A stretch of DNA of 64,000 bases, taken from an uncultured Actinomycetes bacterium (GTDB taxonomy: Bacteria > Actinomycetota > UBA4738 > HRBIN12). The position numbers and the translations under genes were made by a program. Under the pieces are notes generated by a model. It was not told where the DNA came from, did no database searches, and saw nothing but the letters and a program-made list of their open reading frames with translations. Each line of letters opens with the position of its first letter. Within the stretch, counting starts at the first letter, position 1. The stretch covers positions 384,001-448,000 of the forward strand of contig CAVPIB010000004.1 in NCBI GenBank assembly GCA_963704885.1. The letters run 5' to 3'. Below, piece by piece: positions 10,323-31,291 of the stretch.

Positions 10323-10394
10323 TGGGCGCGGCAGGTTTTGAACCTGCGACCTCTCGCGTGTGAGGCGAGCGCTCTCCCGCTGAGCTACGCGCCC
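10323..10394 (-). tRNA. tRNA-Val(CAC)
   Basis: Cloverleaf GGGCGCG...; anticodon arm CTCGC-CT-CAC-AC-GCGAG; GGTTCAAA T-loop. Confidence 0.93.
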
Positions 10395-10463
10395 GTCTTC
10401 GGGATCCGTAGCCTAGCGGATTCGGATACGTCGGCTGGTGAGGGCTCGTGGTGGGGATAAGGT

Positions 10464-10496
10464 GACGGCGGCACGTGCCCGCGTCGTGCCGCCGTC
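10464..10496. other. Perfect 12-bp inverted repeat / hairpin
   Basis: GACGGCGGCACG-N9-CGTGCCGCCGTC. Confidence 0.6.
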
Positions 10497-10691
10497 GCAT
10501 CCGCGCTCCGAAGAGCGGGACGTTCCTGCAGTTCAGGCGGGAGTTTGGCACAGCTGATGAGGCATCCGCAAGGACGGGAGGTGGTCGCTTCGGGGCCGCC
10601 AGAGCGCCTTGGGGGTAACGTGTCGGTTGGATCGATGAAGCTACGCTTCGACCACACGGCCGCGAAGCGACGAGCAGGGAGGCGAGCGGAG

Positions 10692-10850
10692 ATGAAGCGC
10701 TTCCTTACGGACCTCTTCGGCAGGGTCCGTGCGAGATCGGAGACCGATCGCAAGCGCGCCCTTGAGCGAGCCGCCAGGGAGATGAGCCGCCGTGATCCTC
10801 ATGGCGGCAGCATCTGGAGATCTGGGAAGGGCGGTTCTCACCCCGGCTGA
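10692..10850 (+). CDS. Small basic hypothetical protein (52 aa)
   Basis: GGAG-rich SD before the ATG; MKRFLTDLFGRVR... An alternative start lies at 10635. Confidence 0.4.
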   Translation: MKRFLTDLFGRVRARSETDRKRALERAAREMSRRDPHGGSIWRSGKGGSHPG

Positions 10851-10995
10851 AAGGCGACGCTACCCCCCCACGCTCGACGCGGGGCATGCTGCAAGCAGGT
10901 GCTGAACCGGAGCTGATGTCGACAACGGAGGTCTCAGGACTTTCGACCGGGGAAGATGACGACCTCTGTCACCCCGAAACGGCCGACAGGTCCCT

Positions 10996-11023
10996 TTGAT
11001 TCACATGCATTCTTCTCTAAGTT
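10996..11023 (+). promoter_or_regulatory. Putative housekeeping-sigma promoter of a leaderless small ORF
   Basis: TTGATT-N16-TAAGTT, 8 nt before ATG 11032, within a locally AT-rich patch. Confidence 0.45.
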
Positions 11024-11031
11024 GACACCCA

Positions 11032-11241
11032 ATGGACTCCTCCTCGAAGCGCGATCCCGGACGTCGATGCTCAGCCCCAGGCTGCACCACCGTCCTATCG
11101 ATCTACAACTCCGATCATCTGTGCTTCGCACACGCTGACGCCGCGACTCGTGCTCGATTCGAACCCAGGAGGTCGGTCGGGAGCACTCCCGCCATCTATC
11201 GACAGCGGACCGACTCATCGACCTACGCGGCGGTGTCCTAG
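11032..11241 (+). CDS. Small putative zinc-binding protein (Cx4C...Cx2H)
   Basis: RRCSAPGCTTVLSIYNSDHLCFAH; promoter-like elements directly upstream. Confidence 0.65.
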   Translation: MDSSSKRDPGRRCSAPGCTTVLSIYNSDHLCFAHADAATRARFEPRRSVGSTPAIYRQRTDSSTYAAVS

Positions 11242-11503
11242 GGATCTCTCGTGCCATTGCAGGAAGACCCGCACGACGAACACGCAAGGGAGACGAGGGA
11301 AAAGGGCGAGATGCCCGGGATCTTCGTGGACCCGCTATCGATCTCGCTCGTCGAGAACCGTGCGGCAGCGGGTGAGCAAGCGTTCAAGGAGATGTTGGAG
11401 CGCCAAGGCGGCCCCGGCAGGGCAAGCGTCGCCGAGAGTGGTTGGAGCAACACATGGACGCGTTGCGCGCCGCGTTCGCGTGAGCAACGCGCGCGGTCTT
11501 GGT

Positions 11504-11578
11504 TGGTGGGCGCTAGAGGATTTGAACCTCTGACCTCTTCCGTGTCAGGGAAGCGCTCTCCCCCTGAGCTAAGCGCCC
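11504..11578 (-). tRNA. tRNA-Val(GAC)
   Basis: Anticodon arm CTTCC-CT-GAC-AC-GGAAG; GGTTCAAATCC; encoded CCA. Confidence 0.95.
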
Positions 11579-11615
11579 GTGCGGGGACTGTACCAAGGGA
11601 CCTATCGGCCTCTCG

Positions 11616-11686
11616 AGGCGGGGACCGGAATCGAACCGGTGTGCGGGGCTTTGCAGGCCCCTGCCTAACCACTCGGCCACCCCGCC
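11616..11686 (-). tRNA. tRNA-Cys(GCA)
   Basis: GGGGC-CT-GCA-AA-GCCCC anticodon arm; GGTTCGATTCC; U discriminator. Confidence 0.95.
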
Positions 11687-11722
11687 GAACCGGCCCAGTC
11701 TACGGGACCATCCCGGAACGAC

Positions 11723-11749
11723 CGAACGGCCGCCGGAGGCGGCCGTTCG
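11723..11749. other. 12-bp hairpin in the tRNA-Gly/tRNA-Cys spacer
   Basis: CGAACGGCCGCC-gga-GGCGGCCGTTCG, directly 3' of tRNA-Gly. Confidence 0.6.
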
Positions 11750-11750
11750 A

Positions 11751-11826
<76 letters not shown>

Positions 11827-24459: not shown

Positions 24460-25803
24460 TCACACCGCGATCGGTTCGGGCGCGGCAACCAGCTCCCCCG
24501 TCAAGCGGTGTGCGGCTGCCTCCGTTATCCGAGCCCAAACGAACGTACCCGGCTCGAGCTGATCGGGCAGGTGCACGATCCGATTCGTCCGCGTCCTCGC
24601 CTGGATGGAAGGACCGCGTTTACCGGCGCCCTCCACCAAGACCTCGAACCTGCGCCCCACCTGCTCACGGGCGCGCTCCAAAGAGATGCGCTCCTGGATC
24701 GCAGCCAGCCGATCGAACCGCTCCTGAACGACATCCTTCGGGACCTGCTCCGCGAAACCCGCTGCCCGGGTGCCCGGTCGCGGCGAGTACTGGAACATGT
24801 AGGCGCTATCGAACCGGGCACGTTCGACGACGTCGAGGGTGCAGAGGAAGTCGTCCTCGGTCTCACCGGGGAACCCCACTATGACGTCGGTGGAAACGGC
24901 GATATCGGGGATGGCAGAGCGGATCCGTTCCAACCACCCCAAGTACCTGTCGCGCCGGTACGACCGCTTCATCGCCTCGAGCACCCGATCCGATCCCGAC
25001 TGCAGCGGGAAGTGGATGTGCTCGCAGACCGACGGTGTCGCCACCATGGCGTCGATCACGTCCGGGGTGAAATCGTGTGGATGAGGTGAGGTGAACCGCA
25101 CACGCCGGATCCCATCGATCGCGCCGACCTCGCGGAGGAGGTCCGCGAACAGAGGCCTGCGCGAGGATCCCGGCACGGTGAGGTCGCGGCCGAACGTGTT
25201 CACGTTCTGTCCGAGCAGGGTGATCTCGACGACGCCGCGGCGGGCCAGCCCTTGGACCTCGGCCAGGATGTCTCCGATCGTCCGCGATCGCTGTGGCCCC
25301 CGGACCAGCGGGACGATGCAGAACGTGCATGCGTTGTCGCATCCCGGTGCGATGGAGACCCACGCGCGGAAGTTGTCGTGACGCGCCGCAGGAAGGGCAC
25401 CGGGGAAGACCTCGGTAGCCTCCCTGACGTCCATCTGCGGACCGTCGTGCTCCGCGGCGGCCAGCAGTTCGAGCAGCTGCGGCAGCGCGTGTGTGCCCAC
25501 GACCACGTCGACCCACGGTGCTCGAGCCTGGATCGCCCCCTGATCCTTCTGCGCCAAGCAGCCGGCCACGACGATCCGCAGACCCGGGTGCCGTTCCTTC
25601 AGCGGTTTCAGATGCCCTAGGTTGCCGTAGAGACGGTTGTCGGCGTTCTCGCGGATCGCGCACGTATTGAATACGACCACACCTGCCTGATCGAGGTCTT
25701 CGGTGGGCGTCATGCCGTCGCCCATCAACAACCCCGCGATCTTCTCCGAGTCATGCTCGTTCATCTGACACCCGAAGGTGCGGATCAGATAGGTCCGTTC
25801 CAT
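24460..25803 (-). CDS. miaB: tRNA methylthiotransferase MiaB
   Basis: TFGCQMN, CDNACTFC radical-SAM motif and TRAM domain. Confidence 0.96.
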   Translation of the reverse strand: MERTYLIRTFGCQMNEHDSEKIAGLLMGDGMTPTEDLDQAGVVVFNTCAIRENADNRLYGNLGHLKPLKERHPGLRIVVAGCLAQKDQGAIQARAPWVDVVVGTHALPQLLELLAAAEHDGPQMDVREATEVFPGALPAARHDNFRAWVSIAPGCDNACTFCIVPLVRGPQRSRTIGDILAEVQGLARRGVVEITLLGQNVNTFGRDLTVPGSSRRPLFADLLREVGAIDGIRRVRFTSPHPHDFTPDVIDAMVATPSVCEHIHFPLQSGSDRVLEAMKRSYRRDRYLGWLERIRSAIPDIAVSTDVIVGFPGETEDDFLCTLDVVERARFDSAYMFQYSPRPGTRAAGFAEQVPKDVVQERFDRLAAIQERISLERAREQVGRRFEVLVEGAGKRGPSIQARTRTNRIVHLPDQLEPGTFVWARITEAAAHRLTGELVAAPEPIAV

Positions 25804-25828: not shown

Positions 25829-27361
25829 TCACTTGGCGTACTCCACCGCTCGGGTCTCGCGCACCACGGTGATCTTGATCTGGCCTGGGTACTGAAGCTC
25901 CTCCTCCACCTGCTTCGCGATATCCCGCGCGATCATCTGGGCCTGGACGTCGTCCACGTCCTCGGGCACCACCATCACGCGAACCTCCCGCCCCGCCTGC
26001 ATGGCGAACGTCTTCTCCACGCCTGGCTGCGCCGTGCAGATCTCCTCCAGCCGCTCGAGGCGCTTCACGTAGGTCTCGAGCGACTCGCGGCGTGCGCCCG
26101 GACGCCCGCCGCTGATGGAGTCGGCGATCTGCGCCAGGACGGCATCGACCGAATGCTGCTCAACCTCACCATGATGAGACTCGATGCAGTGGACGACCTC
26201 TGGGCTTTCCTTCATCCGGCGCGCGATCTCGGCGCCGATGATGGCGTGAGATCCCTCGATCTCGTGCGTGACCGCCTTCCCGACATCGTGCAGGAACGCC
26301 CCCCGCTTGGCGATGGTCCCATCCACACCGATCTCGGCCGCCAAGGAAGCCGCGATGTGCGCGGACTCCACCAGATGCTTCAACACGTTCTGCCCATACG
26401 AGGTCCGGTATTGGAGACGTCCGAGCAGCTTGATCATCTCGGGGTGGATGTCCGTGATCCCAACCTCCGCGACGGCGTCCTCACCGGCGCGGTGGATCCG
26501 CTCCTCCAACTCGCGCAGCGATCGCTCGTGCACCTCCTCGATCCGGGCCGGGTGGATCCTGCCGTCGGCCACGAGCTTCTCCAAGCTCATCCGCGCCGCC
26601 TCTCGACGCACCGGGTCGAAGCACGACAGCACCACGGCCTCGGGCGTGTCGTCCACGATCAGGTTCACTCCCGTGGTCGCCTCGAACGCCCGGATGTTCC
26701 GGCCCTCCCGGCCGATGATGCGGCCTTTCATATCGTCGCTTGGCAACGCGAAGACCGAGACGGTCGATTCCGCCGTCTGCTCGGAGGCGACGCGCTGGAT
26801 CGCGATCGTCACGATCTTGCGGGCCCGCTCCTCGCCGTCCTCGCGCGCCCGCTGTTCGATCTCGCGCACCTGGCTCATAGCCGCCCGCTTCGCCTCCTCC
26901 AGGACCTGGGCCATCAGGTGATCTCGAGCCTCGCTCGAGGTCATACTGGCTATGCGCTCGAGCTGGGCTCTGTGTTGCTCGGCCGACTTCTCCAACTGTT
27001 CTCTGACGTACTGCAGCTTCTCGTCACGCTCGCTCAGCTCCGCCGCCTTCGCCTCCACCCCGCTCGCCTGCTTGCGGAGATCGGCCTCGAACTCCGCCAT
27101 CCGGCGCTCCAGACGCGTGACCTCTTCGCGCCGCGCGCGGACGTCTTCCTCGGTCTCCCGGCGGATCGTCGCGGCTTCTTCGCGGGCCTGCTGGATCGCC
27201 TCGACCCGAGTTGCATCGGCCTCGCGTTCGGCTTGCAGCATCGACTTCTGGGCACGCGCCTCGACGCTCTGAGCGTTCGAGGTGGCCATCGCCTTGCGGA
27301 TCAGGAACCCCACGGCGATCCCCGCCACCAGGGCGACGACGCCGACCACAACTGGCTCCAT
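25829..27361 (-). CDS. rny: Ribonuclease Y
   Basis: N-terminal TM, coiled coil, KH ([13 protein letters not shown]) and HD (LHDVGK); GGAGG SD. Confidence 0.96.
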
Positions 27362-27380
27362 CGTTCCTCCCAACACACGT

Positions 27381-27580
27381 TGAACGCGTCTTGAGAGAAG
27401 AACCCGAAGGTCCCGCCGTTCGTTAGGGGACGGTGTGCGCGAGCACGGTCACGGTGCGCTATCGGCAAGGGGCGCCGGACGCGCCGCGGTTCGTCGGTCC
27501 TTGGTCGTTCGGTCGGTCGGACTCGCTCACATGGCCTCGTTGTTGAACGTCGGATCTTCGTGCGTTCCTCTCGTGTTCAC
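27381..27580 (-). ncRNA. 6S-like rod-shaped RNA candidate (or structured rny leader)
   Basis: Five nested end-to-end helices found by eye, with a ~13x12-nt internal bubble; TAGCAT (-10) immediately upstream on the minus strand. Confidence 0.6.
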
Positions 27581-28113
27581 GATGCTACGGCCGCTTGGTC
27601 CAGGAGGCAAGGCCGGGTCGTCGTTAGAGGGTCGAGCGCGAGCGCCCGGCGGGCCGCCCCGCGGGCTACCTCCGGCCCGAAGCCGCGTCGCATCAACAGG
27701 GACGTGAGGCGGGAGAACCCCTTCTGAGGGTCGATGGAGCGCATCCGCGCCGCCCTGCTCGCCGCCAAGGCGTCCGCTCGTGCCTCCTCCTCCTCGGCAT
27801 GCGGATCCACCGTCTCGTCGATGATCTCGCGATCCACTCCGGCCGCCGCGAGCGCGCCGGACACCGCTCGCACGCCCGAACGCTTCACCCCGAAGGCGTG
27901 CTCGGCCAGCTGTCGCGCGAACGCTCGATCGTCCACGAGCCGCACCCGCTCGAGCCGCTCTAGGACCTCACCCACCTCGGTGGAGTCGAAGCCAGCCTGC
28001 AGGAGACGTCGCTCCAATTCCCGGCGGCTACGCGCGCGCACCGCGAGCAAGCCCAGCGCGCGCTCGTGGCAACTCTTTGGATGCTTGGGCTTCCGCGAAG
28101 ACGGAGAGGCCAC
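27577..28113 (-). CDS. recX: Regulatory protein RecX
   Basis: ALGLLAVRARSRREL, LVDDRAFA and LMRRGF; directly downstream of recA. Confidence 0.9.
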   Translation of the reverse strand: MASPSSRKPKHPKSCHERALGLLAVRARSRRELERRLLQAGFDSTEVGEVLERLERVRLVDDRAFARQLAEHAFGVKRSGVRAVSGALAAAGVDREIIDETVDPHAEEEEARADALAASRAARMRSIDPQKGFSRLTSLLMRRGFGPEVARGAARRALALDPLTTTRPCLLDQAAVAS

Positions 28114-28120
28114 GACGGGC

Positions 28121-29227
28121 TCAGCCGTCGCCGTTGCGCGCCTTCGAGGCCTTCGCCGCGGCGGGGGCCGCAGGAGCCGCGTCCTCCAAGACTAGGTCAG
28201 GCACTATCTCGATCGGTGTCTCATCACCTTCGGTGCCGAAGGACGTGAGCCCGACGGCCTCGCGGACCTTCCGGTCGATCTCGTCGCGCATGTCGATGTG
28301 CTCGACGAGGAACTGCCGGGCGTTCTCGCGCCCCTGCCCCAGCTGCTCCCCTTCGTAGGTGAACCAGGCGCCCGACTTCTTGACGATCTCGAGATCGACA
28401 CCCACATCCAGCAGGGAACCCTCCTTAGAGATGCCCTTCCCGTACATGATGTCGAACTCGCACTGGCGGAACGGCGGGGCGACCTTGTTCTTCACGACCT
28501 TCACCCGCGTGCGCGAACCAACCACATCGGTACCGTCCTTCAGGTTCTCGATCTTCCGTACATCGAGACGTACGGACGAGTAGAACTTGAGGGCGCGGCC
28601 GCCGGGCGTGGTTTCTGGGCTTCCGAACATCACGCCGATCTTCTCGCGGAGCTGGTTGATGAAGATGGCGGACGTGTCGAACTTCGACAGGGTCCCCGCC
28701 AGCTTCCGCATGGCCTGAGACATCAGGCGGGCCTGCAGTCCGACGTGGGTGTCCCCCATCTCGCCTTCGATCTCGGCGCGCGGCACGAGGGCGGCCACCG
28801 AGTCGATGACCACGACGTCGAGGGCGGCCGAGCGGACCAGCATGTCGGCGATCTCGAGGGCCTGCTCGCCGGAGTCCGGCTGGGAGACCAGGAGCTCGTC
28901 GATGTTCACGCCGAGCTCACGGGCGTAGGTGGGATCGAGTGCGTGCTCCGCGTCGATGAAGGCAGCGATGCCGCCCTTGGCCTGTGCTTCGGCGATCATA
29001 TGGAGGCAGACCGTGGTCTTGCCCGAGCCCTCCGGTCCGAACACCTCGATGATGCGGCCGCGAGGGATGCCACCGACTCCGAGCGCGATGTCGAGCGCGA
29101 GGGATCCGGTGGGGATGACGGTGATGCCGGCGCCCATGGGGTGCTCCCCCAACTTCATGACAGCGCCCTTGCCGAACTGCTTCTCGATCTGCTGCAGCGT
29201 GACGTCGAGCATCTTGTCGCGATCCAT
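28121..29227 (-). CDS. recA: Recombinase RecA (no intein)
   Basis: [20 protein letters not shown] and GGRALKFY. Confidence 0.98.
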
Positions 29228-29300
29228 CCCTGAAGCCCCCTTCTGACCCCTCGGTTCGCCGGAGAGGAGGATCCGACGGCGCTCGTCTCCCATCGCAGAG

Positions 29301-29322
29301 ACCTTACCGAGTGGCTCCGACA
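29301..29322 (-). promoter_or_regulatory. RecA-NDp (PafBC-type) DNA-damage promoter motif
   Basis: Minus strand TGTCGG-agccactcgg-TA-agg-T matches TGTCGG-N10-TA-N3-T exactly. Confidence 0.78.
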
Positions 29323-29324
29323 TA

Positions 29325-29411: not shown

Positions 29412-29996
29412 CTATCCGCTCAGTGGGAACGCCGCGATCGGCTCGTAGAGAGGCGCCGACCTGCCCAGGTCGCTCTGGTACACCAGGAGCCGCTCGATCG
29501 AGAACGCCTCCGTAAGAAGAGCGGTGGCGCCGTACTCATGCGGTAGGTGGAGCGGCGGCTCGGATCGAGCGACCGTGAGGTGCGCGTGGAAGGCCCGTGC
29601 CTCGACCCGGAACTCCTTCGTGAGCGCAGCGTCGAGATCTCCAGCGAGCGTCCCGAGGCCGTTCGCCGAGTCGTCGATCCCCACCCATAACACCCGGGCA
29701 CGCGCGGCGGAGGGGAACGCGCCGAGCCCGTGGAGCCGCGCAGTCACAGGGACCTGCGATGTCGCCACGCCATCGACCGCCTCGAGCACCCACTCGTGCA
29801 GTCGGGGCCGCGTCGCTCCTAGGAACTTGAGCGTCACATGCCAGTTGGCCGAAGGCACCCACTTCGCGCGCGGGAAGGCGAGACGCCAGGGCTCGATGGC
29901 CTCGTGCACCATCCGCTTGGCCTCGTCGGGGATCTCCACCGCCACGAAGAGCCTGCGCGAGGCGGTCTCGGGACGTGCGGCGCGATCTCCGGCCAC
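29412..29996 (-). CDS. thpR: RNA 2',3'-cyclic phosphodiesterase (2H family)
   Basis: RLFVAV, WHVTLKFLG and AHLTVAR (two HxT motifs). Confidence 0.9.
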   Translation of the reverse strand: MAGDRAARPETASRRLFVAVEIPDEAKRMVHEAIEPWRLAFPRAKWVPSANWHVTLKFLGATRPRLHEWVLEAVDGVATSQVPVTARLHGLGAFPSAARARVLWVGIDDSANGLGTLAGDLDAALTKEFRVEARAFHAHLTVARSEPPLHLPHEYGATALLTEAFSIERLLVYQSDLGRSAPLYEPIAAFPLSG

Positions 29997-30007
29997 CAGG
30001 GATCCCC

Positions 30008-31291
30008 TTAGGCCGTGCGGTCGCCACCCGCCACGGGCGCCGCCCCCGGCAGAGGCACCCCTTCCAGGTGCCGGCGGATCAGGTCGAGCGCTGCCTGTTC
30101 GGCCCATCTGCGAACCCGATCGCGTTCGCCTGTCACCCGGACCTCCCGAGCGTGACCGATGCCGTCCGCGTCTAGCCCGATCCACACCGAGCCGGGAAGA
30201 GCACTGCCGTGCGGCTCGGGCCCGGCGGCCCCGGTCAGCGACAGGCCGACGTCTACGCCGAACACGCGGCGAACACCGGACGCCATCTCGAGCGCGCAGG
30301 TCTCGCTCACGGCGCCCGGACCATCGAGCGTTGCCCGCGAGACGCCCAACAGCTCTCGCTTCGCATGGGCCGTGTAGACGACCGCCGCCCCCGCGAAGTA
30401 GGCGGAGGCCCCCGGGACTGACGTTATCCGTGCTCCAACAGATCCCCCCGTGAGGGACTCGGCGATAGCCATCCGCCTGCCCGAGGCCAGCAACAACCGG
30501 CCGACCGCCTCCTCGAGCGTCTCGTCGGTGGTCGTGAAGACTTCGTCGCCCAAGCGGCGCCGGACCTCAGCGACCAGCGGCTCCAGTAGCGCCTCCGCCC
30601 GCTCGACGTCTGCGGCTTTGGCGGTGAGTCGCACCTTGACCTCGCTCGTGGAGGCCAGGTACGCCACGCTGGGGTTGGAGGAGGCCTCGAACAGATCCTG
30701 CAGCATCTCGGCCACTCGCGATTCGCCCAGGCTCGCGCTCCTGAGCGTCCGGGAGACGATCGTGGCCGGCCCCGCCAGTTCCGCGAGCTCCGGCAGGATC
30801 GTTCCCTCCATCATCTCCTCCATCTCCGCGGGCACCCCCGGGACCGCGTACAGACGCTTCCCCCCTGGGAGCTCGGCCACGAGTCCGGGAGCCGTTCCCC
30901 GGTCGGGGGTGATGGTCCGCATCCCGGCGGGGACGTCGGCCTGTCGGAGGTTGCTCAGGGGCATGTCACGGCCGAACGCCGCGAACTTCTCCCGGAGCAT
31001 CTCCTCTATCTCGGGATGGCGGAGCATCGGGACATCAGCCAAAGCGGCGATCGCGTCGCGCGTCAGATCGTCCTCGGTCGGTCCGAGCCCACCGGTCACC
31101 AACACGATGTCCACACGTTGCAGCGAGGACCGCAGCACGCTCACGACCCGATCCAGATTGTCGCCCACGACTTGGTGGAAGAGGACGTCGACGCCGATCG
31201 TCGCCAGCCGCTCAGAGATCCAGCGGGCGTTGGTGTTCGAGATCTGACCGAGCAGGAGTTCGGTGCCGACCCCCACGATCTCTGCGCTCAG
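30008..31291 (-). CDS. cinA: CinA family (MocF + PncC/NMN deamidase)
   Basis: AEIVGVGTELLLG, TGGLGPTEDD, AESLTGG and PGASAYF. Start uncertain: homology begins at CTG 31291, and an upstream ATG lies at 31348. Confidence 0.9.
   Translation of the reverse strand: MSAEIVGVGTELLLGQISNTNARWISERLATIGVDVLFHQVVGDNLDRVVSVLRSSLQRVDIVLVTGGLGPTEDDLTRDAIAALADVPMLRHPEIEEMLREKFAAFGRDMPLSNLRQADVPAGMRTITPDRGTAPGLVAELPGGKRLYAVPGVPAEMEEMMEGTILPELAELAGPATIVSRTLRSASLGESRVAEMLQDLFEASSNPSVAYLASTSEVKVRLTAKAADVERAEALLEPLVAEVRRRLGDEVFTTTDETLEEAVGRLLLASGRRMAIAESLTGGSVGARITSVPGASAYFAGAAVVYTAHAKRELLGVSRATLDGPGAVSETCALEMASGVRRVFGVDVGLSLTGAAGPEPHGSALPGSVWIGLDADGIGHAREVRVTGERDRVRRWAEQAALDLIRRHLEGVPLPGAAPVAGGDRTA

Follow-up and report, generated by a model that had tools for sequence, protein, structure and literature searches.

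The spacer between recX and rny probably encodes a structured 5′ leader of the rny mRNA, about 215 nt long and read from the minus strand of the window (the whole 64,000-nucleotide stretch of DNA that was analyzed). The leader represents an RNA family that is well supported and not yet catalogued, of a functional kind already known, and it most likely tunes the amount of RNase Y. Where it occurs in bacteria, RNase Y initiates a large part of mRNA decay, and control of its dosage therefore sets global mRNA lifetimes. To our knowledge, this control has been dissected so far only in B. subtilis, and our search of the literature found no description of an actinobacterial rny leader.

Pfam domains and the open reading frame list place the spacer in a run of minus-strand genes ordered thpR-like, recA, recX, spacer, rny, and miaB, confirming the recX–spacer–rny arrangement claimed in a preliminary description of this DNA. 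An RNA-repair gene, recA–recX, rny, and miaB make up one co-directional block.

29412–30185, minus strand: LigT/2′-5′ RNA ligase-like (ThpR-type) gene, directly upstream of recA
28121–29323, minus strand: recA, identified by Pfam
27577–28113, minus strand: recX, with Pfam RecX_HTH1, 2, and 3 domains; its frame crosses the rny promoter and is closed by a TGA where the transcript is predicted to start
25829–27361, minus strand: rny (RNase Y), ATG at 27361–27359, with Pfam RNase_Y_N, KH_1, and HD domains
24460–25803, minus strand: miaB, identified by Pfam

The nearest relatives of this RNase Y in public genomes are 84–77% identical and belong to Actinomycetota and uncultured Actinomycetes MAGs. 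The recX tails of relatives are variable and rich in indels; matches to them end earlier, and they appear to stop further upstream than the tail seen here.

Judging from the sequence, the promoter of the rny leader sits in the 3′ end of recX.

27605–27610, minus strand: −35 element TTGCCT, 17 nt upstream of the −10 element and invariant in 12 of 12 same-genus genomes
27582–27587, minus strand: −10 element TAGCAT, inside the invariant CCGTAGCAT and itself invariant in 12 of 12 genus members
27574–27577, minus strand: predicted transcription start, placed by promoter geometry alone 5–8 nt past the −10 element

Conservation of the spacer sets in exactly at the −35 element, at CCTTGCCTC, while the 17-nt stretch between the two boxes is less conserved and varies within the genus. 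Among 34 leaders from other genera, nearly all keep the TTG of the −35 element. The TAGCAT that had been noticed just upstream of the RNA is present at 27587–27582, with the invariance given above. A generic sigma-70 promoter scan returned no sites because the rny boxes score 8 of 12 and the threshold is 9, so the promoter call rests on conservation. Of 201 genomes sampled from the family, 31 (in 5 of 33 genera) carry a single copy each of a pattern consisting of the −10 element and the first leader bases, and its reversed control had no match in the same 201 genomes.

Downstream of the promoter, the fold is described here from the RNAalifold consensus of the 12 genus leaders, which contains 11 helices. 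The first three long-range helices (H1–H3) form a closing rod of about 25 bp, whose pyrimidine-rich 3′ strand ends 24 nt before the rny Shine-Dalgarno sequence.

27564–27572, minus strand: 5′ strand of H1, GAGAGGAAC, Shine-Dalgarno-like, pairing with 27395–27403
27556–27559, minus strand: 5′ strand of H2, GAAG, pairing with CUUC at 27406–27409
27545–27553, minus strand: 5′ strand of H3, CCGACGUUC, pairing with GAACGGCGG around a kept A mismatch
27532–27544, minus strand: 5′ strand of the internal loop (the ‘bubble’), size kept, sequence not
27522–27531, minus strand: 5′ strand of H6, UGUGAGCGAG, pairing with CUCGCGCACA in a 10-bp helix
27444–27521, minus strand: apical variable domain, a C/A-rich single-stranded linker and a G+C-rich side hairpin
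27434–27443, minus strand: 3′ strand of H6, CUCGCGCACA, seen in the 25-leader model alignment
27422–27433, minus strand: 3′ strand of the internal loop, size kept, sequence not
27413–27421, minus strand: 3′ strand of H3, GAACGGCGG; H3 pairs CCG.CG(UUC) with (GAA)CG.CGG
27406–27409, minus strand: 3′ strand of H2, CUUC, with compensatory changes in the 25 leaders
27395–27403, minus strand: 3′ strand of H1, GUUCUUCUC, a pyrimidine tract whose last 3 nt can instead pair with the Shine-Dalgarno core
27370–27394, minus strand: local hairpin H11, touching the Shine-Dalgarno sequence; 10 pairs, 4 of them compensatory (AU:15/CG:9; GU:13/UA:9)
27365–27371, minus strand: rny Shine-Dalgarno sequence GGGAGGA, invariant in the genus

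All eight helices that had been paired by eye in the preliminary description were found on the minus strand where it had drawn them. The outermost of these, UGAACACG/CGCGUUCA, is not supported; it includes an A-C mismatch, the predicted start site falls within its 5′ half, and its 3′ half belongs to the covarying hairpin H11 (27394–27370). The apical CAAGG/CCUUG helix is likewise unsupported, as it is not kept in relatives.

The spacer as a whole is found at 77–80% identity in 11 of 12 other genomes of the genus, and the single genome in which it was missed is a 75%-complete assembly in 510 contigs. Within the genus, mean pairwise identity is 91% for the promoter, 89% for the first 47 nt of the leader, and 94% for its last 59 nt, with 72% for the apical part. 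Second codon positions are 86–92% identical, and third codon positions are 52% identical in recX and 61% in rny. The two ends of the spacer (89–94%) are thus far more conserved than third codon positions (52–61%), a pattern that reveals selection on the spacer sequence. A coding spacer was ruled out, as no reading frame would survive the one-base gaps seen in the alignment.

The fold itself is real and lies far beyond chance, with the case carried by sequence comparison, as a single sequence folds no better than its shuffles. Namely, the minus strand folds at −84.0 kcal/mol (z −0.65, with 53 of 200 shuffles folding as well) and the plus strand at −95.0 kcal/mol (z −0.46, 65 of 200 shuffles). 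The preliminary description had suggested folding both strands as a check, and on neither does the single sequence beat chance. The genus alone likewise shows no compensatory change, with RNAalifold counting it in 0 of 55 pairs among the 12 leaders. We built a covariance model (R1) from the 12-leader genus alignment, and its matches in other genera are full-length, with E-values of 1e-9 to 1e-17.

In a model alignment of 25 leaders, 92.9% of 1204 cells pair, and 31 of the 55 pairs show changes on both sides, compared with 15.3 ± 1.9 in shuffles and 9–16 in slid controls; this alignment was fitted to the model, which favors the structure and on which the covariation count rests, and the leaders are kin, so that they do not count as independent observations. 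The covariation score reaches 0.265 vs at most 0.076 in the slid controls, and none of 500 shuffles reached the observed pairing and covariation values. Covariation across the recX–rny spacers of relatives, the other comparative check proposed at the outset, is accordingly borne out, together with the constant size of the loop. The alignments also take in genomes G008 and G178.

H2 is the clearest covarying helix, with pairs distributed as GC:14 UA:9 CG:1, AU:12 CG:11 GC:2, and AU:12 CG:10. The same exchange can be read directly from the sequences, where the H2 site has GAAG/CUUC in this genus, one other genus has CUUCCG/CGGAGG there, and a further one has CACUCC/GGAGUG. In H1, the stretch CACGAGA(A/G)GAAC around the 5′ strand is invariant across 5 genera, and pair 5 occurs as AU in 9, GU in 13, and GC in 3 of the leaders in the model alignment. 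H6 has 94.7% of its cells paired, several of them as G-U.

The loop between H3 and H6 measures about 12 × 12 nt (12–14 by 11–14), and its size is kept in 24 of the 25 leaders while its sequence is not conserved between genera. The bubble described earlier is therefore recovered, both strands included. Up to three weak G-C pairs could form across the loop in this genus, and some members allow several cross-loop pairs. The apical domain is the least conserved part of the leader, differing in both length and sequence between genera, and the apical fold of this genome departs from its own genus consensus.

When 30 leaders were instead aligned with MAFFT and no fitting to the model, gaps displaced H2 by one column and RNAalifold therefore no longer recovered the long-range helices; H1 and H2 are not countable there, and the helix between the pyrimidine tract and the Shine-Dalgarno sequence is the only one kept.

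Several lines of evidence place the leader on the minus strand. It was held earlier that some helices pair equally well on either strand, so that the strand assignment rested on the promoter. The first part of this claim stands: the covariance model scores the opposite strand of the same spacer at 20–33 bits (L004, L007, L009, L011, and other genus loci), as the rod is nearly symmetric, which explains the pairing of helices on both strands. The second part was too narrow, since the minus strand is also backed by the share of paired cells in the 25 model-aligned leaders (92.9% vs 88.8% for the reverse complement) and by an excess of G-U over A-C cells (80 vs 30) in the 25 leaders when read on the minus strand. 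Read in this direction, the leader runs into the Shine-Dalgarno sequence and ATG of rny.

The leader is single-copy, with one strong match per genome, this one included, and the genomes in which it was seen, about 36, belong to one uncultured Actinomycetota family. Across 151 genomes sampled from the order, R1 matched 23; leaving aside the genome under study (G000), these matches fall in 21 of 79 genomes of this family and 1 of 71 from the other seven families. Two weak matches, L143 and L144, one of them outside the family, lie nowhere near rny or recX and were treated as false. All 61 motif or strong-match loci (L001–L013 and L095–L142), which are redundant and stand for the approximately 36 genomes, are flanked by recX on the upstream side and directly followed by rny. 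Presence in genus g45 comes solely from the unpublished genomes G059 and G079. The leader is limited to part of one family, and sister genera have other leader types. A curated model (R1 or the alignment A4) could be used to annotate the rny leader in these MAGs.

With good confidence, we regard the leader as cis-regulatory. A structured autoregulatory leader of rny had been the second of two readings in the preliminary description, and it fits the promoter, the unbroken conservation up to the ATG, the lack of a terminator, and the strict placement before rny. A more specific arrangement is suggested by the two ends of the leader. The invariant 5′ strand of H1, GAGAGGAAC, resembles the Shine-Dalgarno sequence GGGAGGAAC, and either one is able to pair with the pyrimidine tract. 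If H11 is lengthened by three pairs across the Shine-Dalgarno core, it does so at the expense of the last three pairs of H1. This sharing of one pyrimidine tract between a Shine-Dalgarno-like 5′ strand and the real Shine-Dalgarno sequence suggests a testable design.

In thermodynamic predictions, the mean cost of opening the Shine-Dalgarno sequence was 7.1 kcal/mol in the full leader, 11.3 kcal/mol once the first 45 nt were removed, and 10.5 kcal/mol when those 45 nt were scrambled. The cost was lower in the full leader for 30 of 34 leaders, with removal of the H1 strand adding roughly 4 kcal/mol, and the other 4 leaders showed no gain from the 5′ strand. The mean unpaired probability of the Shine-Dalgarno sequence was 0.17 in the full leader, 0.05 in the truncated one, and 0.17 in an apical-deletion control, and the Shine-Dalgarno sequence is thus predicted to be mostly paired in all states, the full leader included.

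The H1 duplex is clearly stronger than composition gives, averaging −12.9 kcal/mol vs −8.2 kcal/mol with a shuffled tract (n = 34). The duplex between the tract and the Shine-Dalgarno sequence, at −12.5 vs −11.3 kcal/mol for shuffled tracts, is not above what composition gives, and in only 18 of 34 leaders does the best partner of the Shine-Dalgarno sequence share 3 nt or more with the H1 strand. Among 7 leaders folded by minimum free energy, some adopt one state and some the other, and the helix between the tract and the Shine-Dalgarno sequence that RNAalifold keeps in the unfitted 30-leader alignment also speaks for two states. From these models, we tentatively propose that the leader could work as a switch that masks the Shine-Dalgarno sequence.

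In the mechanism that we propose, the intact 5′ strand would hold the pyrimidine tract and bury the 5′ end in a duplex, so that the Shine-Dalgarno sequence stays relatively accessible and the mRNA is shielded. Endonucleolytic cleavage of a single-stranded part, either the loop or the linker, would then remove the 5′ strand; candidates for the enzyme are RNase Y itself (its role in B. subtilis), RNase III, which would attack the 25-bp closing rod, and RNase E/J. Once free, the tract would extend the H11 hairpin over the Shine-Dalgarno core, translation would fall, and the message would decay, giving negative feedback on RNase Y synthesis. We put the chance that the leader mediates such RNase Y feedback at slightly below even. 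The leader may also answer to a factor other than RNase Y activity. The apical linker is a candidate nuclease entry or standby site. C/A-rich words recur in it (GACC, CGAC, CCGA), G and U are scarce, and it is unusually unstructured for a leader of 63% G+C.

The 5′ UTRs of E. coli rne (Rfam rne5) and of rnc and pnp are structured and are thought or have been shown to sense the activity of their own enzyme. These leaders and Actino-pnp (RF01688), listed as an actinobacterial cis-regulatory motif in Table 1 of PMC2864571, resemble the present one in being structured 5′ UTRs of RNA-decay genes; they belong to other genes, have unrelated folds, and none of them matched. The nearest precedent is B. 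subtilis rny, which according to the account in PMC10303841 has a 164-nt 5′ UTR with its own promoter. In that account, RNase Y feeds back by cutting the rny 5′ UTR and the start of the open reading frame, RNase J1 trims, and control is exerted mainly within the first 100 nt of the open reading frame (PMC10303841).

As described there, the B. subtilis leader shares with ours a considerable length (164 vs about 215 nt), a housekeeping-type promoter of its own directly before rny, a structured ribosome-binding region, and a proposed role as the target of feedback through nuclease cuts in the 5′ part. A long UTR reaching from its own promoter to the start codon of the RNase, which one would look for in a feedback leader, is found here, with the promoter at 27610–27582 and about 215 nt from the predicted start to the ATG. 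The two leaders, compared by description only, differ in that the first 50 nt in B. subtilis are A/U-rich with a single stem-loop, whereas the leader described here has a G+C-rich rod that closes the 5′ end onto the tract beside the Shine-Dalgarno sequence.

We also considered readings in which rny translation or stability is set in some other way. The leader might be a sensor for a metabolite, as in a riboswitch, or for an RNA-binding protein that is not a nuclease, which we think unlikely. Such a sensor would account for a covarying multi-helix fold with alternative pairings before the Shine-Dalgarno sequence, and for invariant stretches that exceed the needs of pairing (CACGAGAGGAAC across 5 genera; ACGUUCA and CUGUGAGCGAG across most leaders). 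However, the unpaired regions, which are the usual home of ligand pockets, are the least conserved, and the narrow distribution of the leader, which occurs in part of a single family while sister genera carry leaders of other types, also speaks against a sensor. Furthermore, rny is the only gene associated with the leader at the 61 loci, which suggests that no metabolite is involved.

Another reading, which we judge distinctly unlikely, is that the leader is a constitutive 5′ stabilizer, in which the rod buries the 5′ end and the hairpin blocks 5′-to-3′ exonucleases, yielding a long-lived rny mRNA and no regulation. H1 begins about 2–5 nt from the predicted start and a covarying hairpin stands directly before the Shine-Dalgarno sequence, both as this reading would have it, and trimming of the B. 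subtilis rny leader by RNase J1 is described as halting near −15 (PMC10303841). Yet a 215-nt element of 11 helices with a loop of kept size far exceeds what a 5′ stem would need. The tract common to the 5′ strand and the Shine-Dalgarno sequence, moreover, suggests a choice between states.

The headline of the preliminary description was a divergent 6S or RNA polymerase (RNAP)-binding RNA. 6S RNA is a discrete, abundant RNA of about 180–200 nt that binds the RNAP holoenzyme and templates product RNAs, and in E. coli it is co-transcribed with the downstream gene. In the present case, the loop would mimic an open promoter, either within an RNA of about 190 nt cut from the rny transcript or with RNAP binding inside the mRNA itself. 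The leader does resemble 6S RNA (RF00013) in having a covarying closing stem made of its 5′ and 3′ parts (about 25 bp here) and a large loop about as far from the 5′ end; in the rny leader this loop, about 12 × 12 nt in size, starts some 30–35 nt from the predicted 5′ end. Co-transcription, as in E. coli, would likewise be no obstacle.

The structures diverge past the loop, where 6S RNA continues as an extended double-stranded stem, whereas in the rny leader the 10-bp H6 helix gives way to an unpaired C/A-rich linker, variable and 30–40 nt long, and then to a side hairpin instead of a continued rod. They also differ in their ends: 6S is a free RNA with its own 3′ end, and the rny leader is part of an mRNA leader that carries no 3′ end signal, with conservation continuing into the Shine-Dalgarno sequence. 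The terminator scan found none on the minus strand before rny, its two terminator-like sites lying on the plus strand inside rny, and the H11 hairpin before the Shine-Dalgarno sequence has no U run. The loop sequences are unconserved between genera and, among the 3′ strands inspected by eye, keep no −10-like element. Finally, a link between the Shine-Dalgarno region and the 3′ strand of the closing stem argues for a role in cis.

Database searches agree with this picture. The spacer (27200–27750) had no match at E ≤ 10 among 4227 Rfam families. Eight related leaders gave 4 chance-level matches to Rfam, all outside the leaders and none to 6S, and 20 other rny loci gave no match at gathering scores. 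The search with the Rfam 6S and Ms1 models that had been proposed as a check thus produced no Rfam match of any kind, the presence of an Ms1 model in Rfam 15 being unconfirmed. The 6S model (RF00013) also had no match in the genome as a whole, which would leave the place of a 6S RNA vacant; since the same search was positive in only 5 of 14 control genomes, this absence says little.

Ms1, for its part, is described as lying beside genes for an oxidoreductase and a HAD-IB hydrolase in the material presented in PMC9130861, whereas the rny leader lies between recX and rny in all 61 loci. The two HAD-IB (TIGR01490) genes of this genome are on contig C1 and the window is on C4; the gap beside the first of them is about 212 nt, and no RNA match lies beside these genes, the only Rfam match of that search being a tRNA-Sec. 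This tRNA-Sec gene (L145:76–166 on contig C1 of MAG G000, 70.9 bits) indicates that selenocysteine is probably used.

One further observation bears on RNAP. According to the RIP-seq results reported in PMC11077062, RNAP co-precipitates the full-length rny mRNA of B. subtilis about 64-fold, an association that its authors call species-specific. Taking all of this together, we consider a 6S-like RNA highly improbable here, and we are just as doubtful that the leader is an RNAP-binding mimic of an open promoter inside the rny mRNA, with free RNAP holding or releasing the 5′ strand. If true, an RNAP-binding leader would couple synthesis of the main mRNA-decay nuclease to the state of the transcription machinery, and it would offer a structural basis, from another phylum, for the RNAP–rny mRNA association that stands unexplained in the B. 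subtilis report (PMC11077062). An attenuator or riboswitch of the terminator–antiterminator type was rejected, as there is no intrinsic terminator between the promoter and rny.

Beyond the cis-regulatory leader described here, long recX–rny spacers are found in many lineages. Structured rny leaders may be widespread and change fast in sequence, and such turnover would explain their absence from Rfam. Two rny leaders from other Actinomycetota MAGs (L020:929–1140 and L017:987–1195) have terminator-like hairpins just before the Shine-Dalgarno sequence. In L020 the hairpin is a G+C stem followed by UUUUUU, and a start-proximal strand is complementary by eye to its 5′ arm, as in an antiterminator, although the minimum free energy fold does not contain that pairing. 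The hairpins of L020 and L017 suggest attenuation, in contrast to the leader studied here, which has no terminator and ends at the Shine-Dalgarno sequence. It therefore seems that rny is under attenuation in some lineages and Shine-Dalgarno masking in others.

In a sister genus whose RNase Y is 76% identical, the leader (L018:950–1160) has a different −10 element (TAAGGT) and a different sequence. Its 5′ GAGAGG pairs with CCUCUC beside a CCCUG...CAGGG hairpin over the Shine-Dalgarno sequence, and the same logic is kept with a different sequence. As for other RNAs in the window, a scan of its full length against Rfam at gathering scores found four tRNAs and nothing else, and these tRNA genes form a cluster on the minus strand at 10323–11826.
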